Below, piece after piece: positions 1-46,252 of a DNA stretch of 64,000 nt. The notes beneath the pieces were generated by a model. It saw only the letters and a program-made list of their open reading frames with translations. It was not told the origin of the DNA and searched no databases. The position numbers were made by a program, and so were the translations under genes. Source of the DNA: an uncultured Pseudomonadales bacterium (GTDB taxonomy: Bacteria; Patescibacteriota; Microgenomatia; UBA1400; PJMF01); NCBI GenBank assembly GCA_964583795.1, contig CAZOWX010000001.1:30569-94568 (forward strand), given 5' to 3'. Positions within the stretch are counted from its first letter, which is position 1; the number at the start of each line of letters is the position of its first letter.

Positions 1-1
1 C

Positions 2-3894: not shown

Positions 3895-3935
3895 TACCAG
3901 ATAACACTATAACTTTGGTAAAATAACACTTATCT

Positions 3936-7255: not shown

Positions 7256-7267
7256 CAATTACATATC

Positions 7268-10517: not shown

Positions 10518-10521
10518 TTAT

Positions 10522-15277: not shown

Positions 15278-15318
15278 ATACAAAATTCTTAACAAAAAAT
15301 CGATGATTGAGGAGCACT

Positions 15319-16257: not shown

Positions 16258-17788
16258 GTATTCCGGATAGATTTTTCAGTCGCTCCAGTAAAATCACCGG
16301 AGAGTTCATCAGCAGGTCTGTTAGTGTCCAGTTTTTCATTACCACTAACCACCAATTTTTGGCATCAAGGAAATATTTATACACACCCCAGTTTTTCGAA
16401 CTTGAGTGTTTTGCATGAATCACTCGAGAAGAGCTCGACACAACATTATGGTATCCAGCTCTTCTCAAACGAAGACTCAAATCAATATCTTCAAGGTATG
16501 ATCCAAACTTCTCATCAAATAACCCCACCTTTTCTAAAGCGTCAGCATTGTAGAGCACACAGGCTGCATTGGTCGCGGGAACCACTGTTGTTTTGTTTTT
16601 GGGTATTGTAGTGATTGGAACTGCTTTTCCCTTTTTAACTACTTCAACTCCTGCCGATTCAAGTTGTTCGTTTAAATCATAAATAAGTGGATTCAAGGAA
16701 CCAATTTGTTTCGTCATTGATTTAAGTAACTCTTCAATACTTCGCTCATTGCCTATCACATCATCATTTATTGTTCCCACATACTCAGTCGTAGCCACCC
16801 GAAATCCAATATTGACCGTCGCTGCAAATCCACGATTGTTATCAATAGGAATAAATCGAACATCTGGATATAAAGCCCGCATTCGCCAGATTTGTTTCCA
16901 GTTTAGGGCTGAAGTAACGATAATTAGCTGCGTTTGTCTTAAAAATGTATAATTCGCATGTAAAAAGTCAGTCAACAAAGCAGCTTTTATATTGGGAACA
17001 ACGAAGCTAGCTCCTTGATGAAGAATCGGATATCCATGCCTATCGGAGAATCGACGAACAACACTTTGTCTCAATATGAGTTGTTGCCAAGCAGAAAAAT
17101 ACTTGCGAGAAAATATATCCAGTGATTGAAAAAACAACTCCCGCTGAAGATATGGTTTCAATCGACTAATACTACCTGCCCCTTTATGCTCAACACTCAA
17201 TGGCGCAAATCCTGTCCTGTATCCAGAAGCTACTAATCGCATCGTTAAGTCACTATCTTCAAACCATAAAAAAAACCGCTCATCCCATCCACCAATTTTC
17301 TCTAAAGCTGATCGTCGAACTAAAACGCAACCACCTACGAGCGTTTTTTGCTTCAACTGTTGATGCTTTACTACATGAAGAGGAGTAAACTCAGAAAGTA
17401 AGGCTTCAAAAGTTGGTAGCGGTTTTTGATACCGCTCATCTGTAAATGTTGGCGAAACAGCATCAAGTTGGTTTTTTTCAGCATAGTGAAATAATTCTTC
17501 TATCTCAGATCCACTAATAAAAACGTCAGGGTTTAAAAACAGCACCCATCTGCCGCTAGTGGCCACTATGCCTTGATTAGCTGCATGTGCAAAGCCTTCA
17601 TTCCATCGATTTTGCAGCCACTGCACTTTTGGGAACCGCTTTTTCAACTCACTCATATTGCTCAATGAACTGTTGTCAACAACAGTAATCTCGTAAGAAT
17701 CAATGCCTGGATACAATCGAGATAAACTCTTTTTCAAATCATCCGGAGAGTGATAATGAATGATAACAATCGAAATGTTTGCTTTCAT
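16244..17788 (-). CDS. Tandem two-domain glycosyltransferase family 2 (rhamnosyltransferase-like)
   Basis: Two successive GT2 modules are present. The first is ISIVIIHYHSPDD…VVDNSS…LFLNPDV…WFEDSDLTMR. The second is QLIIVTSALN…IPIDNNRGFAA…INDDV…YLEDIDLSLR. Confidence 0.75.
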   Translation of the reverse strand: MKANISIVIIHYHSPDDLKKSLSRLYPGIDSYEITVVDNSSLSNMSELKKRFPKVQWLQNRWNEGFAHAANQGIVATSGRWVLFLNPDVFISGSEIEELFHYAEKNQLDAVSPTFTDERYQKPLPTFEALLSEFTPLHVVKHQQLKQKTLVGGCVLVRRSALEKIGGWDERFFLWFEDSDLTMRLVASGYRTGFAPLSVEHKGAGSISRLKPYLQRELFFQSLDIFSRKYFSAWQQLILRQSVVRRFSDRHGYPILHQGASFVVPNIKAALLTDFLHANYTFLRQTQLIIVTSALNWKQIWRMRALYPDVRFIPIDNNRGFAATVNIGFRVATTEYVGTINDDVIGNERSIEELLKSMTKQIGSLNPLIYDLNEQLESAGVEVVKKGKAVPITTIPKNKTTVVPATNAACVLYNADALEKVGLFDEKFGSYLEDIDLSLRLRRAGYHNVVSSSSRVIHAKHSSSKNWGVYKYFLDAKNWWLVVMKNWTLTDLLMNSPVILLERLKNLSGILKNL

Positions 17789-18975
17789 GTTTGTCTCAGT
17801 TTAAGATGCACAAAGTATAGATTGATGAGTAATCCGGTGCACTCAGTTCCCAACATTACCCAAGCCGCCCCGATACCACCAGCTATCGGAACTATAAGCA
17901 CATTTAATCCTAAATTTACTACTGTATTTGCTATTCCCCAAGGCAAAAACTGTTTTATTAGTCTAGAACTTTGCACAATCGTACTCAATGGAGAGTTTAC
18001 AAATAGCACTATAGTTACGAGTGAAAATACCTTGACAATCTCTTGAGAAGAAGCGTAGGCATCACCAAGCAATCCTTTGGTTAACAATGCGCTAAGTACC
18101 CAAAGCACACCTGCAGTCACTACACCGGTTATCCCCATAAGAAGCGTTAACATACCAATTTGCCGGCGCGTCATACTCCCTGATTGAGCAGATAAATGAA
18201 ACAAGTTTTGTCCAATAGTATTGGGAAGTAAGCTCACAGCATCAAGATAACGGTAAGCAGCAGAGTACAATCCCAATGCACTATGACCCAACTTTGATTC
18301 CAATATCATCGCATCACCTCTACTATACACTGCCGATGTTACGATCAACGAAGCATACGCACTTGATTCACTCAAAACTTTTTGAAGTTCATGAAATGAA
18401 CATCGGCGTAATGTGTAATACTGGGATGGTATATACCAAAAAAGAGTAAACAATGAGCTAAGTAAGAAACTGGCGTATATTTGAAACAAAGTCAGACTGT
18501 GCGCAAAAAAAAGTAGAAGTAGAAACGGAGCAAAATATTTTGATAATTGTTTTAGCGCAATGTAAATGGGTTGCTTGTGCACTAAGTAATAGGCATCAAC
18601 AATACTAGTCAAAGCTTCTGGAATCAGTAACAATAAACCAATAGTCAATTCAAGAAACGAAAAAACCCGAAACATACTGACGTACACAGCAAAAATAACC
18701 ATCGCCACTAGCAAAGTGACCAAGCGAGCTTGAGCACTCTTGCAAATAAGCTCTTGTTCTTTGTCTTTCGACCAATGCACTTGAAACCATTGAATGAGTC
18801 CCCAATCAAAGATGAGGGTGAGCAGTGAGATAACAATCATAAAATAGGAAAACTTACCAAAAATTTCAGGTTCAAGAACGCGTGCAAAAAAAATAAACAA
18901 AGCAGTTGAAAATAACTTCACAAGTAGTAAACCAGAAAAGTGGGCCCCTGAGCGAACAAGCAGTTTTCGTACCAT
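17785..18975 (-). CDS. Wzx-like polysaccharide/oligosaccharide flippase (MOP superfamily)
   Basis: About 12 TM segments. The N-terminus (LLVKLFSTALFIFFARVLEPEIFGKFSY) is typical of polysaccharide biosynthesis protein/Wzx. Confidence 0.65.
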   Translation of the reverse strand: MVRKLLVRSGAHFSGLLLVKLFSTALFIFFARVLEPEIFGKFSYFMIVISLLTLIFDWGLIQWFQVHWSKDKEQELICKSAQARLVTLLVAMVIFAVYVSMFRVFSFLELTIGLLLLIPEALTSIVDAYYLVHKQPIYIALKQLSKYFAPFLLLLFFAHSLTLFQIYASFLLSSLFTLFWYIPSQYYTLRRCSFHELQKVLSESSAYASLIVTSAVYSRGDAMILESKLGHSALGLYSAAYRYLDAVSLLPNTIGQNLFHLSAQSGSMTRRQIGMLTLLMGITGVVTAGVLWVLSALLTKGLLGDAYASSQEIVKVFSLVTIVLFVNSPLSTIVQSSRLIKQFLPWGIANTVVNLGLNVLIVPIAGGIGAAWVMLGTECTGLLINLYFVHLKLRQT

Positions 18976-19052
18976 ACAAATACGCTTAACAAGCGTCTCA
19001 AAACAGATGAGTACTGTAAGTATAGCAGCTTGGAAAAGAGTTAGGGAAATAG

Positions 19053-20597
19053 CTATTCAAATCCCCAGCTGTAAAGTGTCCCGGGCCAGATTGAGTAGGG
19101 ATTATCATCAAGAGGATAATGGTCAAGGTGTATTTCTTTGCGTAAATATTGTTGAGCAAACTCTACGACGTCTGCGGGTAACGAGCTGTCATCAATCCAA
19201 ACAAAACCGTGTTGATACTGATTCATCACTTTTTGAAAATCATCAAGTGACCCTACAAATCGAATCGCTGGGCTTGAAAAATTAGGAAGTACTTTTTCAC
19301 TATTGAGCAAAGAGACTGCAGTTGTTTTTGCCAAACCATTTACCGTCCCTTGCTCATTTTCCCAATGAAAATAAAACATGTTTGGATTTTCATATCCCAA
19401 GTACCATCTGGCTCGATCTGGCCAGGTATCTACAATTGCGACTGGCTGCGAACTGCTCATAACTTTTTGTTTTATGATTGAGTACACCAGATCATAATCA
19501 AGCAAAGCAATTTCCCGCATATCGTGATTCACAGAATAGTACGCTTTGGGTTTGATAACAAAAGTATCACCATTAGCAATAATAAATAGCGCGAGTAACA
19601 AAACAAACCCTGTTGCCTTTTTAGCCGCAATGCTGTGACTTACTGTTGCGAGCGCGAAACTTGCCAATATCAATATGAGTGGGTAGATCGGTAAAATGTA
19701 CCGAGAAACGTATGGACCAAACACAAAACTGACGAATACTAAGAAAAGTCCTGCTGGAACAACTAGTAAAAATGTACCTTTTTTGTAATGAAAAAAGTTC
19801 ATCAAGACACCGAGTCCCGCCAAAAAGCTCATCAAAGTATGTTCTCGCCATAAAAAGCTGTGATAGTACCACAAATTATTTGGGTGATTTCTCAAAGCAA
19901 CTAACAAATTTGCGATAACTGTCCCACCACTACCATTAAACAGCATTAAACCACCGAATATTCCCAAAACAGCAGCCCCATAGTGCCAATATCTTCGAAA
20001 AGTATTTAAAGAAAATAAATGCCAATGAAAACCTAAATAAACGGCATGGAATATCATTCCGATCACAACAATCCAAAAGGTTGTATGGGTTACAATCCCA
20101 AGAATAATCAATGCTGTCAAATACAATAATTTTTTAACTTCAAAATGTTTCACTAAACGGTGATATGTCCACAAGCTCAGCAATATAAGTAACTGAAGCA
20201 GCATGTAACTTCTCGCTTGTCTGGACCAGGCGATTTGAAAATAGGAAAAGGTCGCGAAAAGGCTTGCAGCAAGAGCAGTTTCACGATCATATAATGATCG
20301 GGCTAACAAAAAAACTGCAACAGGGATAGCAGATCCAATCAATACTGAAGGTAAACGTGCCGCTCGTTCTGTTTGACCAAAAAGTTGAAAAAATAATGAT
20401 ACAAGCGCGTGTTGTGTCACATTGTGATGTTCAAATAACTCATCGTGTTGGGTAAACACAGACAAGCCAAATCGCTGGAATAATAACGCATTACGTGCTG
20501 TCGAAAATTCGTCAACCCAAAATGGAGTTTGCAGATTTGGAAGACGATAGAGCAGAGCAATCGCGAAAATCGCAATGAATAAGATTTTTTTAATCAT
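19053..20597 (-). CDS. GT-C membrane glycosyltransferase, PMT_2/ArnT-like
   Basis: Polytopic. The loop-1 motif is WVDEFSTARNAL, followed by RLPSVLIGSAIPVAVF, as in the plus-strand paralogs. Confidence 0.7.
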   Translation of the reverse strand: MIKKILFIAIFAIALLYRLPNLQTPFWVDEFSTARNALLFQRFGLSVFTQHDELFEHHNVTQHALVSLFFQLFGQTERAARLPSVLIGSAIPVAVFLLARSLYDRETALAASLFATFSYFQIAWSRQARSYMLLQLLILLSLWTYHRLVKHFEVKKLLYLTALIILGIVTHTTFWIVVIGMIFHAVYLGFHWHLFSLNTFRRYWHYGAAVLGIFGGLMLFNGSGGTVIANLLVALRNHPNNLWYYHSFLWREHTLMSFLAGLGVLMNFFHYKKGTFLLVVPAGLFLVFVSFVFGPYVSRYILPIYPLILILASFALATVSHSIAAKKATGFVLLLALFIIANGDTFVIKPKAYYSVNHDMREIALLDYDLVYSIIKQKVMSSSQPVAIVDTWPDRARWYLGYENPNMFYFHWENEQGTVNGLAKTTAVSLLNSEKVLPNFSSPAIRFVGSLDDFQKVMNQYQHGFVWIDDSSLPADVVEFAQQYLRKEIHLDHYPLDDNPYSIWPGTLYSWGFE

Positions 20598-21880
20598 GTG
20601 ACAGACCTCTTTGAAATAATAAATCTTCGTATGACTTCGCCCACGTACACCAAGGCAAGCAACGAGTTGACAACAATGTTTATGACTAAAACATCACGAA
20701 GTGAGTGATGAACAGCAAAAATGGTAATGACCTGAACAATGACAGCGAGAATACCCAAAATAGCAAATCGGCTTTTTTGTGCCACAAAGTATTGAGAGTA
20801 CAGATACATCAGCGAGTACATCGTCCCAAATAAGGCTGCTAACCAAACCAAATCTTGCACTTGTAAAAAACGTGACTTTGCAAATACCACTTGAATGACA
20901 AAGCTAGGAAACAATGAATAAAAAAACGTCATACCAAAACCAACAACGATAATCCCAACGGTCAGTAACAACAATATTGGTAAGGATTGGTGCTTGGTAT
21001 CACTCCCTGTAAAAAAAGTATAACCAACCGTTGATAAGGGAGAAACAGCAAAAAAAATAATCTTTCCTAGCAGTGATAATGATGCATACAACCCTACCAA
21101 ATCTCCGTCAAAAAATTTCTTGACCAAAATCACATCAACATTTGAGAGTCCCACTATGCCTAAGGTCGTAAAAAGCGGAATTAAAATTGATTTTCGCCGT
21201 AAGTACTTTCTTAATTGAGCAAATTGGAGATTTTTTACTTGGTATGATGTTTTCTTCCGAATCATTTTTCTACCAATAAAATAGCTCAACACATAACTGA
21301 GAATAAACCCAACAAATAACCAGAACAGCTCAGGACGAATGACAACGACCAACACAAACAACGCCAACTTAATAAATGCACTCACAATTGAAAATATTCC
21401 GACTGACCAAAAAGTCTTGTATGACTGCAACACTGAAGAATAAAAGCTGGTGAATATTCCGATAATTGAGCTGGCAATCACAAATGCCACCGCCATAATA
21501 CTCATATTCCCTTTGAAGTACATTAACACAGCGACAACTGAAACTAACAATAGTAATGCCGGTGCAAACGTCCATAACTCTGTTTCAAGCCAGCGCTCAA
21601 TTGACAAAGCGATGCTTGGTCTTCTCTCAGATGACTCTCTGCCAATACGCGCAACGACAATCAAACCAAATGCAGTCAGAGGAACACTGAAAAAAATCAG
21701 ATATGATAACGCGGTAGTGTACTCACCATACTCTGTTAATGTCAGGTAGCGAGCAACAAGCAAGTTATCCACATACGCAATCACACTGACTAACAAATTC
21801 GCTGCTGTAAAGATAAAACTTGAACGCAAAAATGAATTATTCAACAAGCGTTTCATCATAGCAAAGTAGTCCAAAGGCAA
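20594..21880 (-). CDS. Wzx-like flippase / polysaccharide biosynthesis membrane protein
   Basis: About 12 TM segments. LLVARYLTLTEYGEYTTALSYL is typical of the MOP flippase N-terminus. It has a 4-nt overlap with the downstream GT-C gene. Confidence 0.6.
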   Translation of the reverse strand: MPLDYFAMMKRLLNNSFLRSSFIFTAANLLVSVIAYVDNLLVARYLTLTEYGEYTTALSYLIFFSVPLTAFGLIVVARIGRESSERRPSIALSIERWLETELWTFAPALLLLVSVVAVLMYFKGNMSIMAVAFVIASSIIGIFTSFYSSVLQSYKTFWSVGIFSIVSAFIKLALFVLVVVIRPELFWLFVGFILSYVLSYFIGRKMIRKKTSYQVKNLQFAQLRKYLRRKSILIPLFTTLGIVGLSNVDVILVKKFFDGDLVGLYASLSLLGKIIFFAVSPLSTVGYTFFTGSDTKHQSLPILLLLTVGIIVVGFGMTFFYSLFPSFVIQVVFAKSRFLQVQDLVWLAALFGTMYSLMYLYSQYFVAQKSRFAILGILAVIVQVITIFAVHHSLRDVLVINIVVNSLLALVYVGEVIRRFIISKRSVT

Positions 21881-21883
21881 CGA

Positions 21884-23470
21884 TCAAGCCGCCGAGGCTG
21901 GTTTTACTTGTTTCGGGGAAAAGTCTTTGAGGTGACCTAAGAAACGCCACCCAGCCATAGCCAAAAACTTCACATCATCAAACGATCGGATGCTAGTAAT
22001 TTTTCTGAGCATAAACCGTGGTGTTAAAAATGACGAGTATAGTTTTTGGGTAAGCCGTAAGACGTCTTCTTGCGTCAGTGACGTTTTCATCACCGGCTTT
22101 CGCATGTCATAGTCCTCATAATCCTCACTCAATAACCACCCGTTCTCTTTGCATTCCTTCCAAAGTGGGGTACCTGGATAAGGGATAGTGATAGTCGCTT
22201 GAAGTGTATCAACATAGCCTTCGTCAAAGCACTCTTTAGCGAGATTAATCGTTCGCTCTGCGTCCTCATATGTTTCCCAGGGATATCCCAGCATTATCGT
22301 TAAATGCGGCTCTAATCCAGCTTTCTTGGCCATTTTCACACCTTCTTTAATTTTGGGAACTTGCATACCTTTCTCGAGCCGATCGAGCGTTTTTTGATTA
22401 CCTGACTCCATGCCATAGAGAATGAATCGAAAATTCGCTTTTCCCATTAGGTCATAATCATCTTGCTTTATGGCATTAAGCCGCATATTACAGCCATAGA
22501 TCACTTTTTTGTTGTATCCCGAGTCAATCATCATCTGGCAAAAATCACGAAGCGGCTTGCCAATCATGAATGTACCCGCATCATCAAAAATTTCTTTGAC
22601 GTGATAGTTATCAACTAAGTGCTTGACTTCAGCGAATAGTCGCTCAGGACTAAATCGACGATAACTCCCCAAGGGGTTGATTGTATGATCCCAAACACAA
22701 AAGGTACAACGATTCCACCAACAATCGCGCCCACTGTACATGTAGGTACCAGGATAATACTTATAATTTCCGTTGTAGTACGCGTAGTTTTCCCAATGTG
22801 TCAGGTCGCGATCGACGAATGGTAAATCATTCAAGTTGTGCTTTAAACTTGCAGGACCAGAGTTGTAATATATTTTGCCATTTACCCCTTTAACCTTATG
22901 AAATTTCTTACATGAAATGGACTTATCTGACGAACGCCACCACACTCCCGTTTCAAGCTCTGTTCCCTTGCTCAAGTGGTCAAGTAAGTTCACAATCACA
23001 AAATCATAATCACCACCGGTAATCAAGTAATCTACACTGCAATTGTCCATCGTCTCCTGAGGCATGAAGGTCACGTGATCACCAACTAAGACTACTTTAA
23101 GTTTTGGCATCGCTTTTTTTATTTTGTCGACAACTTTCCAATGTTTTTTAATCACTGGTGATTTTGACTCAATCATCAGTACATCTGGATTGAATTCCTT
23201 AAGTTCTGTGAGCCATTGATCATACGTTTGCTCAGCAGCAATACCGTCCATCCACTTAGTTTCATAACCATGCTCTTGTGCATTCGACGCTGCATACGCT
23301 GGAACCATCGGGTAAATATAGGTCTTTGCGTTAAAATACTGAAATTGTCGGTTTTGAGAAAGAAGCGGAACCCCTTTACTTGACGGAATTGGAGGATAAC
23401 CAAAAACAAACTTCAACTTTTTTATTGATTTTTGTTTCATCACTTTTTTTGTGGTTTTTTTCGCTGGCAT
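21884..23470 (-). CDS. Cobalamin(B12)-binding-domain radical SAM protein (class B rSAM, probable methyltransferase)
   Basis: The N-terminal Rossmann-like B12-type domain is KVVLVGDHVTF…ITGGDYDF. The radical SAM cysteine cluster is RDCWWNRCTFC. The class-B motif GMESGNQKTLDRLEKG is present. Confidence 0.65.
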   Translation of the reverse strand: MPAKKTTKKVMKQKSIKKLKFVFGYPPIPSSKGVPLLSQNRQFQYFNAKTYIYPMVPAYAASNAQEHGYETKWMDGIAAEQTYDQWLTELKEFNPDVLMIESKSPVIKKHWKVVDKIKKAMPKLKVVLVGDHVTFMPQETMDNCSVDYLITGGDYDFVIVNLLDHLSKGTELETGVWWRSSDKSISCKKFHKVKGVNGKIYYNSGPASLKHNLNDLPFVDRDLTHWENYAYYNGNYKYYPGTYMYSGRDCWWNRCTFCVWDHTINPLGSYRRFSPERLFAEVKHLVDNYHVKEIFDDAGTFMIGKPLRDFCQMMIDSGYNKKVIYGCNMRLNAIKQDDYDLMGKANFRFILYGMESGNQKTLDRLEKGMQVPKIKEGVKMAKKAGLEPHLTIMLGYPWETYEDAERTINLAKECFDEGYVDTLQATITIPYPGTPLWKECKENGWLLSEDYEDYDMRKPVMKTSLTQEDVLRLTQKLYSSFLTPRFMLRKITSIRSFDDVKFLAMAGWRFLGHLKDFSPKQVKPASAA

Positions 23471-23478
23471 ATGAGTCC

Positions 23479-24456
23479 TTATTGAGCTAAATGATTAGTA
23501 AACAAATACCCTTGAACAAATCGTAATCCGTACCAAAGATGTGTTACAAAAACCGATGCGATCGAAATAATCGCTTGTAATAAACTCTTCGATGATAAGC
23601 CAATCCATACTGCATTCGCAAGTAGGGCTATAGCATAGAACAACAATGGAAGTACTATCAACAAGCTCAACGACGGAAATAGCGCTAGAGAAGTAAGCAG
23701 TGTGGCGACATTCAACACCATCAATGTTGGTAGAAAATAAATAAGCTTTGCTGATGTTTTTGGTAAGACTCTCGCAAAAAACCCTCGGTGTATCCCAAAA
23801 TTGCCATTTTGTTTTAGATGTGCTCGCCACAATGGCCTGCGATGATGGTACACAATAGCCTTTGGCTCATACAAAATCTTCTTTCCCCTATGAATCAAAT
23901 CTAAACACAGTTTAGTATCTTCTCCTGGATAGTAATGCGAGTCGAAACCGCCAATGGCACTAAATTCTGAAGCTCTTACAAGTAGGTTCATGGAGGGATA
24001 ATCCTCTACGTACTGCTGCTTTCCTGGCAGAAATCGATAGGTATATGGTCCAGCACCAATGGGTGAAGCACTAACCCAACCACTAGCTGCTTCAGTCCAA
24101 TCAACTTTAGGGGGAGTAATGCCTGGACCCCCAACTGCTGCAATTTGCATATTGGTAAAGTGTGCTACAGCGCTTGTGAGCCAATCAGAACTTGGGTACG
24201 CATCATCATCGATAAAGGCAAATATCTGGCCGTGCGCATACTTGATAGCCAAATCTCTTTTTTGTGCCGGTCCAATTGGCCCTGTTTGAATATATTGAAC
24301 CCGATTCATTTTGGGCATACCGTTTTTTTGGTCGCAAAAAACAAACACTTCAGTTGTTGGATAGGTCAATTTTCCTATTTGCGAAAGGCACTCTTTGAGA
24401 TAGGAATTAACTGATCGCACTGGAATGATGATAGAAACGAGAGGTGTCTGGTGCAT
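23479..24456 (-). CDS. Glycosyltransferase family 2 with C-terminal membrane anchor
   Basis: Motifs are VSIIIPVRSVNSYLKECL…AFIDDDAYP…GEDTKL. Two C-terminal hydrophobic helices follow. Confidence 0.75.
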   Translation of the reverse strand: MHQTPLVSIIIPVRSVNSYLKECLSQIGKLTYPTTEVFVFCDQKNGMPKMNRVQYIQTGPIGPAQKRDLAIKYAHGQIFAFIDDDAYPSSDWLTSAVAHFTNMQIAAVGGPGITPPKVDWTEAASGWVSASPIGAGPYTYRFLPGKQQYVEDYPSMNLLVRASEFSAIGGFDSHYYPGEDTKLCLDLIHRGKKILYEPKAIVYHHRRPLWRAHLKQNGNFGIHRGFFARVLPKTSAKLIYFLPTLMVLNVATLLTSLALFPSLSLLIVLPLLFYAIALLANAVWIGLSSKSLLQAIISIASVFVTHLWYGLRFVQGYLFTNHLAQ

Positions 24457-24471
24457 AAAAACAGTTCAAAC

Positions 24472-25296
24472 TTAAATCAAGGGAATAATTTTTCTCTTCA
24501 CTTTTTCAGGCGGATGAAACCGGGAGTGCGGTAACTCGTAGTACTTCATTATTTTAAAGCGATAAAAAATCCCTAAAGTGTCGTAAAAAATCTTCCAAAT
24601 ACTTTTCCAGTCTGCAGCAGAACTGATGTTCGAAAAAGTATAATCTAACTTAATAGGAGCTTCGTAAATCCGATGAAATCCCAAAGACTTTGCTACAACC
24701 AACATCTCTAAATCACCAGCAAAACGTTTTTCAACCAAACGAGGCAAGGTTTTTTCCAACACCTTACGTTTAAAAACCTTAATCCCAGCTTGTGTATCTT
24801 TCACTTTGACCCCAAATAGGGTTTTCACAAAGTAGTAATACCCAATACTCAAGATTTTTCGCTGCAATGTATAATTTACCTGAGAAGCAGGGTGACGTTT
24901 TGACCCGACAATGACATCGGCGTTATACCACTTCATGTGTTCTAACAACATGCTAATCCCATCCGCCCCGATTTCCATACCAGAATCTAAAAACATCACG
25001 TGTTCTCCCAAAGCTTGACTCATCCCAAAACGAATGGCATACGATTTCCCTTTATTTTCCGCATACTCATACACACTCGCTTGCGATAATCGCCCATACT
25101 TCCCTCTAATGCTCGCATTACTCAACACACGAAAAGAGTTGTCATACTCTCCATCAACAACCACAATCACCTCATAGGAGTAACGAGTTCTTCCCAAGGT
25201 TTCAACTATTTGCTTCAAATTGTCAACAATAAATTTTTCTTGTTTATAGCAGGGGATAATTAAACTTAAAAATGGGGTTTGCTTCATGCTCAACAA
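24472..25296 (-). CDS. Glycosyltransferase family 2 (polyprenyl-phosphate glycosyltransferase / DPM1-GtrB-like)
   Basis: Motifs are LSLIIPCYKQEKFI…VIVVVDGEYDNS…FLDSGME. The size and layout resemble Dpm1/GtrB-type enzymes that load a lipid carrier. Confidence 0.65.
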   Translation of the reverse strand: MLSMKQTPFLSLIIPCYKQEKFIVDNLKQIVETLGRTRYSYEVIVVVDGEYDNSFRVLSNASIRGKYGRLSQASVYEYAENKGKSYAIRFGMSQALGEHVMFLDSGMEIGADGISMLLEHMKWYNADVIVGSKRHPASQVNYTLQRKILSIGYYYFVKTLFGVKVKDTQAGIKVFKRKVLEKTLPRLVEKRFAGDLEMLVVAKSLGFHRIYEAPIKLDYTFSNISSAADWKSIWKIFYDTLGIFYRFKIMKYYELPHSRFHPPEKVKRKIIPLI

Positions 25297-25306
25297 ATGT
25301 TGGTAA

Positions 25307-25753
25307 TCATTTAATACCAGATAAAATATTTTCTACCCACGCCTCCACCGATTGCATAATCACATCATCTGGAAATCCATCAATTTTTAGTGAGTCTCCC
25401 ACGATTTGTGCTTTTTTTGCAGTCAAGTCGTTATTCATCAATGAAACAACATTACAAAACACAGGATAAAAACTCTCTCCCAATCCATACACAGCACATT
25501 TCACGTTGCTCAGATCAGTTGATGAAGCTTTGAGTTGATCAAAAAAGGCCTGCGAAAAGTCATTGTACTCACCATCCCCCCAAGTTGAGGATCCAATGAA
25601 AACCAGTTCATACTGCGTTAATTGATCTACTTTGAGTTCAGACATATCAACCAAACTAACCTGATGACCTTTTTGTTTCAATAGTTCTTCAATTTTTTGA
25701 GCAACCATCATGGTGTTACCACCAATCGATGCATAGGTAACAAGTGTTTTCAT
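25307..25753 (-). CDS. Flavodoxin (short-chain)
   Basis: MKTLVTYASIGGNTMMVAQ carries the flavodoxin T/SxTGxT phosphate-binding signature. FIGSSTWGDGEY is the FMN-binding loop. Length is 148 aa. Confidence 0.75.
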   Translation of the reverse strand: MKTLVTYASIGGNTMMVAQKIEELLKQKGHQVSLVDMSELKVDQLTQYELVFIGSSTWGDGEYNDFSQAFFDQLKASSTDLSNVKCAVYGLGESFYPVFCNVVSLMNNDLTAKKAQIVGDSLKIDGFPDDVIMQSVEAWVENILSGIK

Positions 25754-25859
25754 ATCAAGCTATAAGTAATTATTAACTCACGTAATCGTACTTTAACTTA
25801 ACAGTATTTTTCTCAGATGAAAAGGTGCTAAATGCACTCAAATCGCTATCACTCGCGAC

Positions 25860-26846
25860 CTATTTTACTATAGCGCGAAAGTACTCTATAGTTTTTCGCA
25901 ATCCTTCTTCAAAATCAACTTTTGGCTCCCATTGCAACAACTCTTTTGCCTGCTGAATAACTGGTTGTCGGCGAGTGGGATCATCCGCTGGAAGAGGCAG
26001 GTACTCGACCTGAAGGGAATGTCCCACAACTCGCTCAAACATCTTTACTGTTTGCATGATAGTAAACTCTCCAGGATTCCCCAAGTTTACCGTTTTCCCA
26101 TTCCCAAGTGGGTGCAGTAGCAACGCTAAGATTCCGGACACTAAATCATCGACATAACAGTACGACCGTGTTTGTGACCCATCACCAAACACTGTTAGGG
26201 GAGTATCATGAAGTAACGATTGAACAAAACTGGGAATAATTCTTCCATCACTCAGGTCCATACGTGGACCATACGTATTAAAAATACGAACAATTCTCAC
26301 GTCTTGCTGAAAATCTCGCTGAAACACCCCGCAAATTGTTTCTCCCATCCGTTTTGCTTCGTCATAACACGAACGCTTCCCATTTGGGTTGACGTTTCCC
26401 CAATATGATTCACTTTGGGGATGAACCTGCGGATCACCATACACTTCAGATGTTGACGCAAATAAAAAGGGAATGCGTTGCTGTTTTGCTTGAATAAATG
26501 AAAGTAACTGGTGTGTCCCCATTGCGTTCACTAAATACGTTTCAACGGGATGCTCTTGATAACGCGGAGGGCTTGCGGGCGAAGCAAAATGCAAAATGTA
26601 ATCGATGTGTTGATCCTTTGGGATGTATTTGTCTGGATAATCCGAGACATCAGCTTCAGTGAAGATAAAGTGATCAGCAAAACTGCGCGTTAAAATGTCT
26701 ATATTCTGTCGTTGACCGGTAATAAAATTATCAGCACCAACAACTTTCCCTCCTTCTTGCATAACCGCTTCAGCTAAATGAGACCCAACAAATCCAGCAA
26801 CTCCAGTTATTAAAACAGTTTTGTTGTTAAAACGTGAAGAACTCAT
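25860..26846 (-). CDS. UDP-glucuronate decarboxylase / UDP-xylose synthase-like SDR (dTDP-glucose 4,6-dehydratase family)
   Basis: KTVLITGVAGFVGSHLAEAVMQEGGKVVGADNFITGQRQN closely follows the UXS N-terminus. The catalytic Y in YDEAKRMGE is present. Confidence 0.75.
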   Translation of the reverse strand: MSSSRFNNKTVLITGVAGFVGSHLAEAVMQEGGKVVGADNFITGQRQNIDILTRSFADHFIFTEADVSDYPDKYIPKDQHIDYILHFASPASPPRYQEHPVETYLVNAMGTHQLLSFIQAKQQRIPFLFASTSEVYGDPQVHPQSESYWGNVNPNGKRSCYDEAKRMGETICGVFQRDFQQDVRIVRIFNTYGPRMDLSDGRIIPSFVQSLLHDTPLTVFGDGSQTRSYCYVDDLVSGILALLLHPLGNGKTVNLGNPGEFTIMQTVKMFERVVGHSLQVEYLPLPADDPTRRQPVIQQAKELLQWEPKVDFEEGLRKTIEYFRAIVK

Positions 26847-26858
26847 TGATTGATTGTA

Positions 26859-27704
26859 TCATTGTGTCGGTTGAGTCGCCACCAAAGTTTGTGGCTTTGG
26901 CTTTAACAACGTTTTCCTATTTCGATACGTGTTGAACAAAAGATTCAAAAACAATAAAGGCATTAAATAGGGCTCTGTGAGGTGTAACCGCATAGCAAGT
27001 GGCACGAGAATTCCCAAAAAAGCTCCATAGACTATTTGTTCTTTTTGATTGACGGGTGAGGTCTTTGGTTCAACAACCATTACCAGTACAAAAAAGAGTA
27101 AGGTTCCCTCGAGTAGGATAAATGCAGGAGAACGATGAACTAATAGTACGTGGGAAAGTATAAATAATAGTAAGAATGTTCCAACAATAAACAACTTCCG
27201 ATATTTCCAAGCGACATAGAGTCCCACTGGAACAGTTAAAAACACGACAATACTCATTCCGCCACGTATAATCGGTATCCTTGGAGTGAAGCTTGCTCCC
27301 CACCAGACAGGTGAGAAATGAATCAAACTCACAATTGTTGCAGCAAGCGCTGCTGGATTAAAAATCGGGCCACTCGGTAAGCGAGCTACACGTTGCAAAA
27401 GTTCCACCAACACTCCAACACAAAAGTAAAAGTACCAAGGATAGTCAATGTAAAATAATAATGAAAGAATAAGGCAGGTAATCAACCGGTGTTCAAAACG
27501 GGTTTCTCTGGTGAATTTTCTCCATAACAACACACGATAGACAAAAAAAGCACCCAAACATATGCTCAGAAAATTTCTCACAACACTCAAAGCGTCGAAC
27601 AGAGAACTGGATGCAACGCTGAGTGTTGCCATCACAAACACAATTGTGAGATAGTAGAGTAATGTGCGTATAGGCAGGATGCGAATGGACATGGTATTAT
27701 TCAA
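26859..27704 (-). CDS. Polytopic membrane protein, function unknown (first gene of the long minus-strand glycan operon)
   Basis: About 8 hydrophobic segments. No motif recognised. Confidence 0.4.
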   Translation of the reverse strand: MNNTMSIRILPIRTLLYYLTIVFVMATLSVASSSLFDALSVVRNFLSICLGAFFVYRVLLWRKFTRETRFEHRLITCLILSLLFYIDYPWYFYFCVGVLVELLQRVARLPSGPIFNPAALAATIVSLIHFSPVWWGASFTPRIPIIRGGMSIVVFLTVPVGLYVAWKYRKLFIVGTFLLLFILSHVLLVHRSPAFILLEGTLLFFVLVMVVEPKTSPVNQKEQIVYGAFLGILVPLAMRLHLTEPYLMPLLFLNLLFNTYRNRKTLLKPKPQTLVATQPTQ

Positions 27705-27718
27705 ACTTGTCTATTTAA

Positions 27719-27753
27719 TTTGCATATTACAAATATACTAACATAATTTGGAG
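27719..27753 (+). promoter_or_regulatory. Sigma70-like promoter plus RBS for the FMN-binding lipoprotein gene (TTTGCA -35 / CATAAT -10 / GGAG)
   Basis: TTTGCA 27719–24, a ~17-nt spacer and CATAAT 27742–47. GGAG 27750–53 sits 5 nt before ATG 27759. The region is divergent from the minus-strand operon start. Confidence 0.45.
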
Positions 27754-27758
27754 ACAAT

Positions 27759-28205
27759 ATGCCCAAATCAACAGCTCTATTACTGAGCACAACAATTATG
27801 GCTAGTGTACTGTTAGCCGCATGTACACCCTCATCACCAGCAAGTGAAACTTCGCAGACTCAACCATCTGAACCAACTACCGCCCCTACAACTGAGAATA
27901 CCGGTGAGATGACGAAAGGCAAGCAAGTTTCAGTTGATGCTCCTTATGAGTCTCCTGCTGGCGAAGAAAGCATCGGAATTACACTGAGCGTTGACGAAAA
28001 TGGGGTGATAACGGATGCAAAGGCCGAAGTAAAAGCTACTGAAGAAAAATCAATTGTTCGTCAACAGGCATTTGCTGATGGGCTTCCAACAGCAGTAAAG
28101 GGCAAAAAATTATCTGAATTGACTAAAATTGACAAAGTGGGGGGATCTTCACTAACCACACAAGCATTCAATGAAGCACTTGTGAAATTAAAGGCTCAAT
28201 TATAA
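27759..28205 (+). CDS. Lipoprotein with C-terminal FMN-binding (FMN_bind/NqrC-RnfG-like) domain, predicted extracytoplasmic
   Basis: The signal peptide ends with the lipobox LLAAC. The C-terminal IDKVGGSSLTTQAFNEAL resembles the flavinylation motif D-x-x-SGAT-[TS] of ApbE substrates. Confidence 0.5.
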   Translation: MPKSTALLLSTTIMASVLLAACTPSSPASETSQTQPSEPTTAPTTENTGEMTKGKQVSVDAPYESPAGEESIGITLSVDENGVITDAKAEVKATEEKSIVRQQAFADGLPTAVKGKKLSELTKIDKVGGSSLTTQAFNEALVKLKAQL

Positions 28206-28229
28206 TTGAGTCTGATTAAAAAAGTTTCA

Positions 28230-28263
28230 ATACCTGCTTCGGCTCGAAGCAGGTATTGTTTTT
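28230..28263 (+). terminator. Rho-independent terminator (12-bp perfect stem ATACCTGCTTCG/CGAAGCAGGTAT, loop GCT, then TGTTTTT)
   Basis: Read directly from the sequence, 25 nt after the lipoprotein stop. Confidence 0.7.
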
Positions 28264-28280
28264 ACAATCAAATAAATTCT

Positions 28281-29147
28281 ATGTTTGATTACACATTTGA
28301 ATCCATGGGAACTCATTGGAGTCTCTCAATTGACCACCAACACGTAACTTCAAGCGTGATTGAGGACATTAAAACCCAAACAAAGCAATTCGAACAACGG
28401 TTTTCTCGTTTCATCAAAAGCAGTGAATCTAATCAATTTCGCAAAAGTAAAGCTGGTGACTATCTAATTTCTACCGAATTTGCCGGACTGCTCAATGCGG
28501 GACAGCAATTATTTGAGTTGACTGGCGGAGCGTTCGATATGAGTATCGCCTCTTTCTTTGAACAAATCGGTTACGACGAAAGTTATAGTTTTCGTTCAAC
28601 AAAAAACACTCAGTGGAATGCTCCAAAATGGTCTCTTCATGGCAAACTTCTTTCCATTTCGGGCCCAATCGTATTTGACGTGGGAGGTTTTGGAAAAGGC
28701 TATTGGATTGATCAGATAAGTCAGATTTTACACAAGCACAATTTCCCACACCATCTGGTTGAGGGTGGAGGGGACATGGTTGCTACAGAAAAAAAAGACA
28801 ATTCTGCTTGGAATGTCGCTATTGAGTATCCTGGACAACCTGATCAAGCAATAGGTACAGTAGAGCTGAAAAATCAAGGCCTTGCAGTGTCGGATATTTT
28901 TAAACGAAAGTGGCAAAACTATCATCACTTGATTAACGCGAAATCGCACAAGCCAATTCACCATATTGTTAGTAACGCCGCAATCGCACCAACAGCGTTT
29001 TTAGCAGACCAGATGACCTCAGCACTTAGTTTTGCGCAACCGTCCCAATACCCTTTTATTGCACAGCAGCTTTCTGCTGAGTATTTTGTGATCAAACCCC
29101 AAAATGAACTGTTACAAAGTGCCAAATGGCCAGGAATATTTTTTTAA
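28281..29147 (+). CDS. apbE: FAD:protein FMN transferase, ApbE family
   Basis: The N-terminal FESMGTHWSLSI matches the ApbE (F/L)xxMGT start. Length is about 290 aa. The start was placed after the terminator hairpin, and no signal peptide is apparent. Confidence 0.65.
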   Translation: MFDYTFESMGTHWSLSIDHQHVTSSVIEDIKTQTKQFEQRFSRFIKSSESNQFRKSKAGDYLISTEFAGLLNAGQQLFELTGGAFDMSIASFFEQIGYDESYSFRSTKNTQWNAPKWSLHGKLLSISGPIVFDVGGFGKGYWIDQISQILHKHNFPHHLVEGGGDMVATEKKDNSAWNVAIEYPGQPDQAIGTVELKNQGLAVSDIFKRKWQNYHHLINAKSHKPIHHIVSNAAIAPTAFLADQMTSALSFAQPSQYPFIAQQLSAEYFVIKPQNELLQSAKWPGIFF

Positions 29148-29714: not shown

Positions 29715-29950
29715 ACCTGGATTATACAGTACACATACTTTACCGCTCGCAGCACCTTCACAAAGCGAGAAAAACATCGCTCATGCAAAGGTCTGTTGAG
29801 TGCAAAATAAAAGGACAAAAAATCCTGCAATGAACCACCAAGCGAATCTCATGATATAGTATTATATCATAACACAGTGTTTATAGTGTATTGCAGGTTT
29901 CTCTCTCTGAGACCCTTTTTTTAGTAATCTTTCTGTATACTATTAGATGT

Positions 29951-31474
29951 ATGGGTAATCCCAAAATAAAGCCACAATCACTCGAGAAAATAAACTTCTT
30001 ACTTGGACTTGTTATTGTGCTACTGATTGCAATAGGTGTCAGAATCCCTCAACTCAACAGCTCTTTTTGGCTGGACGAAGCTGCTCAAGCCCTCGAGAGT
30101 ATTCGTCCGTTTTCTCAGCAACTTTTGATCGACCATGATTTCCAACCCCCACTGATGCATATTTTGGTTCATCTCTTTACATTAGCCAACAGCTCTGAGT
30201 GGTGGTTACGTCTGGTATCACTCATCAGTGGATTGGGAACAATTATTGCCACTTTTGCGCTTACAAAGCGTATTGCTAACACAAAAGTCGCGGTACTCAC
30301 CACATTATTTCTGACAATCAACTCGTTTCATGTTTTTTACTCACAGGAATTACGCCCCTACGCATTGACTGGGTTATTTGTCGCAACTGGTTGGTATTTG
30401 GTTGTCAGGATCGCAGAGTATCAAACTTTTCATCCCAAATTACTAATTTTGCTGGTTCTCAATAGCATAGCCGGTATGTATAGCACCTACTTATTTCCTT
30501 TTGCATTCCTAGGACAGTTGCTTTTTCTGATGTCACGACGCAATACCAAAGCTATTGCTCAAGCCTTGATCTCTGGACTGGTAACCACTCTAGCGTTTTT
30601 ACCCTGGATTCCTTTTTTATTCGGACAAATGAAAGTCGGCAGAGCACTACAACAAAGTACTCCTGCATGGCAGGCTGCAGTAGGGACACCCCAGCTCAAA
30701 GCACTGCAACTGGTTGTGGGAAAGTTTGTTTTTGGAGTCATTGACTTAGAAGTCGATGTTCTTTTCGTCTTTACCACCCTGATCATCTTGGGCTTAACTG
30801 CATTTCTACTTCATCAGCTTCACCGAAAAATTGGTATTACCACTCAGCTGATCATCGGCGGGTGGTTCGTACTTCCAATATTTATCATTTGGATATTTTC
30901 CTTTTTCCTACCCATAATTCAACCGAAACGAGTACTGTTTGCACTGCCTGCTTTTGAACTCATTTTCGCTTTAGTAATTGTGTATGGTTGGCAATGGAAA
31001 AAAACAAAAATTGCCGCAATGGTATTACTCATTTTGTTGACAGCCTCGCATCTTTTTGGTACTTTTGCGTACTATTTCAATCCCAAATATCAACGGGAAG
31101 ACTGGAAGAGCATTATTACTCAGATTGATACCAATTTTTCTGCGAGCAATACTATCGTGGTTTTTCGATTTGATCACCCCTTTTCACCATGGGATTGGTA
31201 TCACCATCAATCATTTTCGAGTGTCGCGACAGGAACAGCCACAAAAACAAGTGTCGAGCAAGTGCCTGATTCAATTTCAGCGGTACTCGATTATCAGAAC
31301 GTGATTGTGTTTGACTACCTCGCAGATCTTACCGACCCAAATCACACTGTCGAACAGTATTTAACCCAGTATAATTTTCAAGCAGGACAACTTTTTGTTG
31401 ATCCCAATATTGGTTTTGTTCGAGTTTACTCGAAAGGTGGCAGCTTTGCTCTCAACACTAAACGTCACTATTGA
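29951..31474 (+). CDS. GT-C membrane glycosyltransferase, PMT_2/ArnT-like
   Basis: The loop-1 motif is WLDEAAQALESI. The protein is polytopic. A TTG at 29891 is an alternative upstream start. Confidence 0.65.
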   Translation: MGNPKIKPQSLEKINFLLGLVIVLLIAIGVRIPQLNSSFWLDEAAQALESIRPFSQQLLIDHDFQPPLMHILVHLFTLANSSEWWLRLVSLISGLGTIIATFALTKRIANTKVAVLTTLFLTINSFHVFYSQELRPYALTGLFVATGWYLVVRIAEYQTFHPKLLILLVLNSIAGMYSTYLFPFAFLGQLLFLMSRRNTKAIAQALISGLVTTLAFLPWIPFLFGQMKVGRALQQSTPAWQAAVGTPQLKALQLVVGKFVFGVIDLEVDVLFVFTTLIILGLTAFLLHQLHRKIGITTQLIIGGWFVLPIFIIWIFSFFLPIIQPKRVLFALPAFELIFALVIVYGWQWKKTKIAAMVLLILLTASHLFGTFAYYFNPKYQREDWKSIITQIDTNFSASNTIVVFRFDHPFSPWDWYHHQSFSSVATGTATKTSVEQVPDSISAVLDYQNVIVFDYLADLTDPNHTVEQYLTQYNFQAGQLFVDPNIGFVRVYSKGGSFALNTKRHY

Positions 31475-42831: not shown

Positions 42832-42897
42832 TCACCGATGATGCCACACAAGCTCTGTAAAGACAAGTCACATGAGAAGCCAATTCAGCAGTCGAAG

Positions 42898-43830: not shown

Positions 43831-44158
43831 GATGCAAAGTATACAACTCCCTGCTTAGAAAAAAAGATAAAACTGTGCGAATCACCACGATCAGCGCTAA
43901 ACGAATCAATTCATCAATTGTTGGTTTCAGAATGGTGCTCATCGCATCAGCGACAATAAAAAACTCAAGACTAAAAACAATCTTCTGAGCAAAAGCTAGT
44001 CTTGCCTTTTCTATCTTTTTCATCATGTTCGTATCCACCTTCCATGGTTGATACGAGAAATAATAATAGGCGGCAGAAACACCACCAACTAAAAGAGCTA
44101 AGTAACCAAGTAAGTCAAAAAATATTTGTGACGCATCAACGAAAAGTGTCATTGTCAT
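43823..44158 (-). CDS. Small membrane protein, unknown
   Basis: 111 aa with two hydrophobic helices. It overlaps the upstream gene by 8 nt. Confidence 0.35.
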   Translation of the reverse strand: MTMTLFVDASQIFFDLLGYLALLVGGVSAAYYYFSYQPWKVDTNMMKKIEKARLAFAQKIVFSLEFFIVADAMSTILKPTIDELIRLALIVVIRTVLSFFLSRELYTLHHD

Positions 44159-46246: not shown

Positions 46247-46252
46247 AGATCG

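Follow-up and report, generated by a model that had tools for sequence, protein, structure and literature searches.

A 528-aa radical S-adenosylmethionine (SAM) protein is encoded at 21884-23470 on the minus strand of a 64,000-nucleotide stretch of DNA (the window; contig CAZOWX010000001.1, from a genome titled 'uncultured Pseudomonadales bacterium' that GTDB places in the Patescibacteriota). We propose that it represents a radical SAM family of class-B architecture working inside a conserved cassette that also encodes two GT2 glycosyltransferases, GT2a and GT2b, a statement to which we assign a probability of roughly 0.55. In the window, the cassette is joined by a flavodoxin gene where sister lineages carry a ferredoxin gene, and it is reasonable to view the protein as a glycan-tailoring class-B-type radical SAM enzyme with its own reductant, much as an original prediction, made from the DNA sequence alone, had suggested.

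Both of the domains that had been predicted are present. Residues 248-411 (22238-22729, minus strand) match the Pfam profile Radical_SAM (PF04055) over profile positions 5-166 with 64.6 bits against a cutoff of 29.5, and residues 50-152 (23015-23323, minus strand) match the B12-binding profile (PF02310), a Rossmann-type domain, with 39.5 bits against a cutoff of 32.1. The core includes the DDAGT (GGE-type) and GMESGN blocks, as judged from alignment with HpnJ and its relatives, and the cluster-binding loop, read directly, is C250-WWNR-C255-TF-C258 (22697-22723, minus strand), the sole CxxC-containing cluster in the protein. The original prediction had considered that this cluster might align outside the radical SAM core; it is instead within it, because the loop lies at about position 5 of the Radical_SAM profile, that is, at its start, and its counterparts in alignments are the cluster loops of HpnJ and OxsB. 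The G-x-E-S-G block, named at the time as a class-B motif, was found as GMESGNQKTLDRL beginning at residue 353, but it is not confined to class B.

An AlphaFold2 model built from 45 orthologs (predicted local distance difference test score (pLDDT) 82, predicted template modelling score 0.82) consists of a Rossmann domain followed by the radical SAM barrel and C-terminal helices. When it was compared with the PDB using Foldseek, there were 123 matches at E<=1e-3, to radical SAM structures with a partial triosephosphate isomerase (TIM)-barrel fold; AprD4 ranked first, followed by MgmA, OxsB, TsrM, CysS, and TokK. All of the top matches are Rossmann-plus-radical SAM enzymes, and those to MgmA, OxsB, TsrM, CysS, and TokK extend over the whole chain. 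With the profile, the three-cysteine loop, and the partial TIM-barrel fold all in place, the protein is a genuine member of the radical SAM superfamily, and its N-terminal Rossmann-type cobalamin-binding-like domain ahead of the radical SAM core gives it class-B architecture.

The Cx4Cx2C spacing of the cluster loop (RDCWWNRCTFC), reported originally as a departure from the canonical Cx3Cx2C, is real and is conserved in 120/120 of the closest database homologs, 115 of which have an identical CWWNRCTFC. Among 64 orthologs read from fetched loci, 58 have the Cx4 form CW[WY]xxC[TSKRN]FC, and the other six (five from Nitrososphaerota and one from Omnitrophota) have CWWRxGGGCTFC, or Cx7Cx2C. On the basis of this conservation in close homologs and locus orthologs, we regard the Cx4 spacing as a signature of the family. 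When the protein is aligned pairwise with a bona fide HpnJ (Mycetohabitans, L001), the two loops differ by a one-residue gap alone, GRDCWWNRCTFC versus GRGCR-SRCTFC, and phmmer aligned the OxsB loop RGCDYSRCTFC to RDCWWNRCTFC. The spacing is thus unusual in that it departs from Cx3, but it is not unprecedented: the crystal structure of OxsB has a Cx4Cx2C motif (PMC9204698), and the sugar C-methylase GenD1 has been reported with one as well (PMC4340712). In a survey of loop lengths, made by searching 50%-identity cluster representatives, the top-scoring representatives had mostly the Cx4 and Cx7 'CWW' forms, and Cx3 (CP[FY]xCxFC) prevailed at ~40% identity and lower; related branches have Cx9, Cx10, and Cx17 loops (P0134, P0152, and P0157), and some lack the cysteines. 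As judged from these sequences, the first inter-cysteine segment is a hot spot of length variation.

Several other features of the loop region were seen in these surveys. The Cx7Cx2C loop, CWWRNGGGCTFC, is three residues longer than that of the window protein and occurs in L034:10007-11518, L035:10022-11527, L036:10004-11488, L059:10464-11384, L064:10007-11509, and L055:10001-11713. Five full-length relatives (P0139, P0146, P0149, P0151, and P0161; 33-39% identical) lack all three cluster cysteines and have largely lost the ESG block, and may be catalytically dead paralogs derived from radical SAM enzymes. Inteins of ~270-490 residues interrupt some orthologs inside the cluster motif (L063:7847-10789, L065:7838-10795, P0122, P0124, P0125, P0126, and P0123). 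Most directly precede cysteine three, and their junctions read CTF|C(L/F/V).. and ..HSYxAN..xN|C(S/V)W, and that of P0123 precedes the first cysteine (..VHN|CWW). Megacluster-4-11 of RadicalSAM.org also has a Cx4Cx2C motif, but it is probably not this family, as it is part of Megacluster 4 rather than of the B12-binding Megacluster-2-1.

None of the curated families accommodates the protein. The best NCBIfam model is HpnJ (TIGR03471), with 176 bits (E=1e-51, residues 49-502) against a cutoff of 577.6, followed by BchE (TIGR02026), with 110 bits against 481; every remaining model scored 82 bits or less, all below their cutoffs, among them AprD4 (NF033070), with 38 bits against 500. We therefore rejected assignment to HpnJ, which in addition has Cx3 spacing and whose companion genes are missing: hpnI, hpnK, and shc turned up neither in the scanned proteins of the window nor in related loci. 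Source annotations give the family no specific name, and the 'anaerobic Mg-protoporphyrin cyclase (BchE)' carried by some homologs is an over-annotation in light of the BchE score. AprD4 was likewise rejected, although it is the best structural match. We define here a 'CWW-loop' radical SAM/GT2/GT2 cassette by CW[WY] after the first cluster cysteine and a GT2b gene directly upstream, both of which are found in the window; by its sequence, the window protein belongs to a large, uncharacterised CWW-loop family and is neither HpnJ, BchE, nor AprD4.

The family is widespread, and the original view that the pairing of a radical SAM enzyme with a surface-glycan locus is uncommon did not hold. A word-indexed search (E<=1e-5) returned >5,360 homologs from several phyla and from archaea, and the radical SAM/GT2 cassette is common. 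The best 120 homologs are all at least 64% identical to the window protein, and the named ones are from Patescibacteria, WWE3, or Roizmanbacteria. When one genome of each GTDB species was scanned, 60 loci emerged, with orthologs in Collier-, Woese-, Roizmanbacteria and other Patescibacteria (62-77% identity), a Desulfofervidaceae metagenome-assembled genome (MAG; 54%), Nitrososphaerota archaea (51-53%), and many Omnitrophota as well as Planctomycetes, Nitrospirae, Actinomycetes, Firestonebacteria, and Verrucomicrobiota (43-49%). Overall, identity is 62-86% among Patescibacteria and 43-54% to other bacterial phyla and archaea. Literature searches for the cassette in the candidate phyla radiation (CPR), Omnitrophota, or Thaumarchaeota returned nothing specific to the family. 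We also note that a number of GTDB-representative MAGs with 63-77% identical orthologs and typical Patescibacteria-style cassettes are titled 'uncultured Pseudomonadales/Gammaproteobacteria bacterium' (L008-L012, L014, L019, L020, L023, L025, L026, L028, and L030), and that L061 is titled 'Weeksellaceae'; these titles are probably placeholder or wrong taxonomic labels.

What ties the family to glycan synthesis is its neighbourhood. Proteins of the window and of WWE3 served as a BLASTP panel against all open reading frames (ORFs) of the fetched loci, and neighbours were counted only in loci with enough upstream sequence. GT2b is directly upstream of the radical SAM gene in 49/53 loci (24/26 of Patescibacteria type and 25/27 from other phyla), GT2a is upstream in 39/47 (18/23 and 21/24), and a Wzx-like gene, whose product is 22-33% identical to that of the window, is upstream of the cassette in 27/45 (17/23 and 10/22). 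These GT2-GT2-radical SAM loci span Patescibacteria, Omnitrophota, Planctomycetes, Nitrospirae, Actinomycetes, and Nitrososphaerota, and what surrounds the trio differs: heptose-pathway genes and class-I methyltransferases in WWE3, the deoxythymidine diphosphate (dTDP)-rhamnose pathway and lipid-A-type genes in Omnitrophota, and GT4, nucleoside triphosphate (NTP)-transferase, and uridine diphosphate (UDP)-xylose synthase (UXS) genes in Nitrososphaerota. Because all other neighbours vary among loci, the invariant functional unit is GT2a, GT2b, and the radical SAM protein, usually with a flippase.

This conservation bears on the suggestion that the enzyme acts on a peptide, a protein, or a lipid chain in what is merely a general envelope locus. 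There were sub-threshold NCBIfam matches to the radical SAM enzymes ApyD and rSAM_ocin_1 of ribosomally made peptides with post-translational modifications (RiPPs) and to lipid-modifying families, and a Clostridium estertheticum plasmid homolog (27.5% identity) is located in a peptide-maturation cluster. However, the GT2b/GT2a adjacency has been kept across bacterial phyla and archaea while other neighbours change, and there is no precursor peptide, PqqD/RRE gene, or protease gene in the cassette. We consider this explanation very improbable.

In the window, the cassette is embedded in a glycan operon, between GT2 genes and Wzx flippases, as had been predicted. Ten co-directional genes on the minus strand run from an RnfD-like gene to a double-GT2 gene between 27704 and 16244, with gaps of -4 to 77 bp; from the flavodoxin gene to the GT-C gene, the successive intergenic distances are 10, 15, 8, 3, and -4 bp. 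A scan for promoters and terminators over 15800-28300 gave counts no higher than in shuffled sequence and is uninformative on operon boundaries. GT2a (274 aa, 24472-25296) resembles polyprenyl-phosphate sugar synthases: its nearest solved structures are GtrB sll0501, Pyrococcus DPMS, and ArnC, and it has weak NCBIfam matches to PgfS, ArnC, PpgS, and AglJ. GT2b (325 aa, 23479-24456) matches Pfam GT2 families, and its NCBIfam matches, MftF-like (116 bits) and AglG-like, are both below cutoff; it also has EpsD-like GT-A features, and its hydrophobic C-terminal ~90 residues were read by eye as probable transmembrane helices.

Upstream of the flavodoxin gene is a 328-aa short-chain dehydrogenase/reductase (25860-26846, minus strand). 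With 309 bits (E=3e-91) against human UXS1 (2b69) in phmmer and 136 bits for the next family, its sequence clearly identifies it as a UDP-glucuronate decarboxylase/UDP-xylose synthase, and it is a probable nucleotide-sugar supplier. UXS orthologs (40-49% identity) are within L024, L033, L036, L059, and L063, which are labelled as Saccharibacteria, Falkowbacteria, Desulfofervidaceae, and Nitrososphaerota MAGs, and in L070-L072 an epimerase/dehydratase-family gene of matching size stands where UXS stands in the window. On the other side, 3 bp downstream of the radical SAM gene, is a Wzx-like flippase (428 aa, 20594-21880; weak Polysacc_synt match), whose gene overlaps by 4 bp that of a PMT_2/ArnT-like GT-C membrane glycosyltransferase (19053-20597; PF13231, 54 bits). 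A second Wzx-like flippase (396 aa, 17785-18975; PF01943 and PF13440 above cutoff) and a 514-aa glycosyltransferase with two GT2 domains (16244-17788) end the gene string, all on the minus strand; a syntenic double-GT2 gene is present in L068.

Other loci contain genes without a counterpart in this string. Between the ferredoxin and radical SAM genes of WWE3 and some Patescibacteria is a protein of ~160-335 aa (L004:8957-9925, L007:3483-4493, and L032:9095-9580) that has no significant Pfam or NCBIfam match, only a weak one to DUF4015 (putative glycosyl hydrolase), and no window equivalent. Extra radical SAM genes, 22-27% identical to the query, are a few kb from the cassette in many loci (L012:19156-20736, L020:19213-20793, L033:10058-11500, L041:15692-17191, L044:14726-16114, L053:18290-20524, and L064:14249-15652), and there are four in L067. 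A homolog on a Lawsonia intracellularis plasmid (L002:6920-8383; 28% identical, Cx3) has GT2s, a SIS protein, a second radical SAM protein, and five class-I methyltransferases alongside.

The second line of evidence is the electron carrier. The 148-aa short-chain flavodoxin (25307-25753, minus strand) is two genes away from the radical SAM gene, as first noted, with GT2a and GT2b between. It matches Flavodoxin_1 (PF00258) with 98.6 bits against a cutoff of 25 and PDB flavodoxins at E=1e-21 to 1e-16; the equivalog model TIGR01753 gave 93 bits, below its cutoff of 123. The motifs expected for flavin mononucleotide (FMN)-type binding can be read from the sequence as S9-IGGNT14, T57-W58-GDGE, and G92-ESFY96. 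In 22/29 Patescibacteria-type loci, GT2b and the radical SAM gene flank the gene of a 77-90-aa Fer4_13/15 ferredoxin, and in two further loci of this type the ferredoxin gene adjoins GT2b and insertions separate it from the radical SAM gene. There is no ferredoxin anywhere in the 64-kb window, where the gap between GT2b and the radical SAM gene is 8 bp, and the flavodoxin gene is directly upstream of GT2a. The database holds ~10 close flavodoxin homologs, and all five of the contexts that could be read (the window, L068, L070/L071, L072, and L073) have the flavodoxin directly upstream of the cassette and no ferredoxin; the radical SAM protein of L068 is 86% identical to that of the window, and the order in L072 is flavodoxin-GT2b-radical SAM.

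There has thus been a non-orthologous swap of ferredoxin for flavodoxin within one cassette. Since the five independent flavodoxin contexts always adjoin the cassette and sister lineages carry ferredoxin there, the idea of a dedicated carrier is supported, and the swap is the strongest available support for it; we propose that the flavodoxin is the reductant of the radical SAM [4Fe-4S] cluster. Interchange of ferredoxin and flavodoxin is classically seen under iron limitation (PMC8238504). A low-affinity iron permease (PF04120, 165 bits) is encoded at 49048-49470 in the window and is possibly relevant to iron economy given the swap. The cassette-encoded carrier is confined to reduced-genome Patescibacteria, a pattern that would fit an inability of these organisms to rely on a housekeeping carrier.

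A different partner for the flavodoxin has to be considered, as the window also encodes an RnfD-like membrane protein (281 aa, 26859-27704, minus strand; Pfam), an FMN_bind-like lipoprotein (27759-28205, plus strand; 19 bits, below cutoff), and ApbE (28206-29147, plus strand; 139 bits), a divergent trio typical of extracytosolic flavinylation systems. In the NQR/RNF-like flavinylation clusters described in the CPR, the RnfD-like protein carries an NqrF NAD-binding domain as a fusion partner (PMC8238504). No NqrF-type NAD-binding domain was found by Pfam in the window RnfD-like protein, which would therefore need some cytosolic redox partner, and the trio is just upstream of the flavodoxin cassette in the window, L068, L070/L071, and L072. 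The flavodoxin might then serve this module or general metabolism, its place in the operon being a matter of synteny. This is weakened by three more distant loci in which the trio occurs without flavodoxin or radical SAM cassette (L074-L076) and by the short contig L073, in which the flavodoxin cassette has no trio in 3.6 kb of upstream sequence. Because each occurs without the other, we treat the trio and the flavodoxin cassette as separate neighbouring modules. Moreover, in every ortholog context read, the flavodoxin gene is followed directly by GT2a or GT2b and the radical SAM gene, and the ferredoxin in the equivalent cassette of sister lineages independently leads one to expect an electron carrier at this place. 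We judge service to the trio or to general metabolism to be quite improbable.

For the cassette with its own carrier, we infer both a substrate and an order of steps. UXS and other nucleotide-sugar enzymes would supply donors, and the GtrB/ArnC-like GT2a would put a sugar onto polyprenyl phosphate; as a UXS gene is often in the cassette, this sugar may be derived from UDP-xylose. The membrane-anchored GT2b would extend or transfer the sugar, adding or moving a second residue at the membrane. Reduced flavodoxin, or in most Patescibacteria a small ferredoxin instead, would give one electron to the [4Fe-4S] cluster on C250/C255/C258, the reduced cluster would cleave SAM, and the resulting 5'-deoxyadenosyl radical would take a hydrogen from the sugar, after which the substrate radical would be resolved. 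The radical SAM enzyme would in this manner tailor a sugar carbon of the GT2 intermediate or, equally, of a nucleotide sugar consumed by GT2b. The Wzx-like flippase would then export the tailored product and, in the lineage of the window, GT-C would install it on a surface acceptor.

The original prediction proposed C-methylation or epimerisation, as in the aminoglycoside and fosfomycin methylases. These are among the possible outcomes, but the closest named relatives, HpnJ and BchE, are not methylases, and no computed result discriminates among outcomes. We tentatively rank cobalamin-mediated C-methylation first, at somewhat under even odds, because it is the majority chemistry of the class, GenD1 is a precedent for Cx4, and HpnJ groups with MoeK5 and Fom3. 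A ring contraction of the HpnJ/Cds type is ranked next, as a less probable outcome, on account of the best curated match, the shared gene order, and the Cx4 precedent of OxsB; other outcomes, including cobalamin-free AprD4-like dehydration, together carry a similar weight.

The ring contraction can be formulated as a full rival that retains the logic of the cassette: a pyranose of a membrane glycoconjugate would be converted into a five-membered carbocycle (cyclitol ether), and cobalamin would not be a methyl donor. HpnJ, for which a hopanoid-associated contraction of bacteriohopanetetrol (BHT)-glucosamine to a cyclitol ether has been proposed, is by far the best curated match, with a near full-length alignment at 28% identity; BchE, also a non-methylase, follows, and every methylase model scored 72 bits or less. 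The sugar on which HpnJ acts is lipid-anchored and is the product of a membrane GT2 encoded upstream; the order of hpnI and hpnJ is that of GT2b and the radical SAM gene in the window. OxsB, a structurally proven Cx4Cx2C enzyme, contracts rings, and Cds represents archaeal radical SAM chemistry for cyclitol head groups. On the other hand, the HpnJ score is far under its cutoff, no HpnK-type deacetylase or hopanoid genes are present, and GT2b is not a homolog of HpnI beyond a shared fold (BLASTP E=0.007 over 40 residues). The chemistry cannot be deduced from the similarity to HpnJ, because HpnJ co-clusters with the C-methylases Fom3 and MoeK5 in similarity networks. In addition, a polyprenyl-phosphate donor whose reducing sugar had undergone ring contraction would no longer function as a donor for GT-C. 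We regard this rival as rather unlikely.

Several observations weigh against one or another part of the proposal of a class-B enzyme with its own carrier in a glycan cassette. The first concern cobalamin. The original description as a cobalamin-type enzyme went too far, as cobalamin use is only presumptive: AprD4, the best structural match, has the same domain and is cobalamin-free. Nor can cobalamin binding be read from the sequence, which offers no signature to look for. DxHxxG is absent, and its loss had been put forward as grounds for rejection, yet this is uninformative because solved class-B enzymes hold cobalamin base-off without a His ligand (PMC12931638). No cobalamin uptake gene was detected among the window proteins scanned with Pfam, and an Rfam scan of the whole 64-kb window had no matches, and so no cobalamin or SAM riboswitch. 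In the AlphaFold2 model, the cysteine-loop region (residues 234-270) has pLDDT <65 and is the lowest-confidence part. As for the carrier, the cassette has a ferredoxin in 0/28 loci of other phyla, so that outside the CPR it is without a carrier of its own, and in L069, whose radical SAM protein is 77% identical, there is no ferredoxin and no flavodoxin within 10 kb; the cassette thus need not encode a carrier. The predicted co-occurrence with GT-C, scored with a home-made hidden Markov model, was seen within 10 kb in 9/37 long loci, all of them from Microgenomates, so GT-C is a lineage-specific downstream user rather than a family-wide partner. Finally, the substrate may be either lipid-linked or nucleotide-linked, and all members of the CWW-loop family are experimentally uncharacterised.

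The cobalamin findings could be accommodated if the N-terminal Rossmann domain were cobalamin-free and the enzyme carried out 1,2-diol dehydration (deoxygenation), epimerisation, or oxidation on a sugar, which we consider improbable. AprD4 with paromamine tops the Foldseek list (E=1e-17, target TM 0.70), ahead of the cobalamin enzymes, and was also found by phmmer (E=7.5e-7); nothing related to cobalamin was found in the window by Pfam scans of its proteins or by Rfam. Patescibacteria are not known to make cobalamin. AprD4 and ArsL are both in the B12-radical SAM network, with a Rossmann-type domain, and bind no cobalamin (PMC12931638). However, the AprD4 model scores far below its cutoff while PF02310 is above its gathering score, and the cobalamin-binding MgmA, OxsB, and TsrM score nearly as well as AprD4 in the structural comparison. 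The N-terminal domain also ranks with the best-conserved parts of the protein: dozens of residues in and just before it are invariant among the 45 orthologs compared, which argues for a cofactor or catalytic role. It is this strong conservation that suggests cobalamin use.

Taken together, these results present a sharply defined, abundant, cross-domain family with a fixed two-GT2 partnership, a carrier swap, and a variable cluster loop. Few pools of unassigned enzyme chemistry are as large as that of the class-B radical SAM enzymes, and the CWW-loop family is well suited to experiment, being highly conserved, represented by thousands of sequences, and tied to two glycosyltransferases; the CPR cassette even carries the predicted physiological reductant in the same operon. 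The predicted target is a glycoconjugate of the cell envelope, in organisms that live as episymbionts by means of their surfaces and about whose glycobiology next to nothing is known, and the exchange of ferredoxin and flavodoxin, together with Cx3, Cx4, Cx7, and up to Cx17 loops, amounts to a natural series for studying the tuning of SAM cleavage. We see the family as a good target for enzymology rather than as a paradigm-breaker. A bolder proposal, which we hold to be unlikely, is that the product of the cassette is a C-branched sugar, or one whose ring has been contracted (carbocyclic, ether-linked), borne by a membrane lipid or a surface glycan. If so, chemistry of the HpnJ/calditol-synthase type would extend beyond hopanoid producers and Sulfolobales to ultra-small bacteria (Patescibacteria and Omnitrophota) and to the ammonia-oxidising archaea of soils, and reduced-genome lineages would have to bring their own low-potential carrier, ferredoxin or flavodoxin, for the sugar step.

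The wider window is also rich in glycan genes, which make up most of the genes scanned (1-16257 and 29891-56354) and include at least 20 glycosyltransferases (GT2 and GT4). There are four PMT_2-type GT-C paralogs, at 7268-8947, 19053-20597, 29891-31474, and 39993-41528, and a Wzy_C protein at 38161-39993. Three ORFs of ~550 aa (3936-5570, 5567-7255, and 8862-10517) have no Pfam match, as does a 961-aa ORF at 12392-15277. A carbohydrate-storage or catabolism block on the minus strand (41530-48903) comprises PGI (41530-42831), a BadF/BcrA-type ATPase (42898-43830), a GH15 glucoamylase-like gene (44249-46246), GH57 (46253-47539), and a GT5/GT4 starch-synthase-like gene (47647-48903).

To place the enzyme among known systems, we compared it with its closest relatives. 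With HpnJ it shares the two-domain architecture, the ..RCTFC.. core, the DD..T (GGE-type) block, and similar C-terminal helices, and the hpnJ gene also comes after a membrane GT2 gene. It differs in that identity is only 28% and the score less than one third of the cutoff, that HpnJ has Cx3Cx2C (CRSRCTFC) where the window protein has Cx4, and that the hpnJ locus examined encodes no ferredoxin or flavodoxin. OxsB (PDB 5UL2-4), a cobalamin-dependent enzyme of the oxetanocin ring contraction, has the same Cx4Cx2C loop and a matching fold (E~5e-15). However, its sequence relation is very weak (E=0.2), it is a 744-aa protein with extra domains and without the CWW signature, and it acts on a nucleotide with its partner OxsA.

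The class-B C-methyltransferases GenD1, GenK, MoeK5, and Fom3 act, by description, on sugars or on lipid- or nucleotide-linked small molecules (the substrate of Fom3 is CMP-linked) and provide a precedent for C-methylation, but they belong to actinomycete secondary-metabolite clusters rather than to envelope-glycan cassettes of CPR, Omnitrophota, and archaea. AprD4 (PDB 6FD2), a 1,2-diol dehydratase on paromamine, resembles the window protein in structure and in its N-terminal Rossmann-like domain and has a sugar substrate, as is predicted for the window protein; it differs in being part of an aminoglycoside pathway and cobalamin-free, and it has a partner reductase, AprD3.

At the level of the cassette, the arrangement is reminiscent of the three-component glycosylation systems of the Arn/Gtr/Pgf type: GT2a resembles GtrB, ArnC, and PgfS, GT-C resembles ArnT and the PMT enzymes, UXS parallels the ArnA decarboxylase step, and a flippase gene lies between. 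Neither a radical SAM step nor a dedicated ferredoxin or flavodoxin is part of those systems; in addition, a second GT2, GT2b, is obligatory in the window cassette, and GT-C is not conserved outside Microgenomates. The carrier itself has its parallel in E. coli, where the FldA/Fpr flavodoxin system activates BioB, PflA, and LipA. In both cases a short-chain flavodoxin would be the single-electron donor to the SAM-binding [4Fe-4S] cluster, but the E. coli protein is a housekeeping flavodoxin encoded elsewhere, whereas here the carrier gene travels with the cassette and, unlike in the E. coli system, the type of carrier switches among sister lineages.

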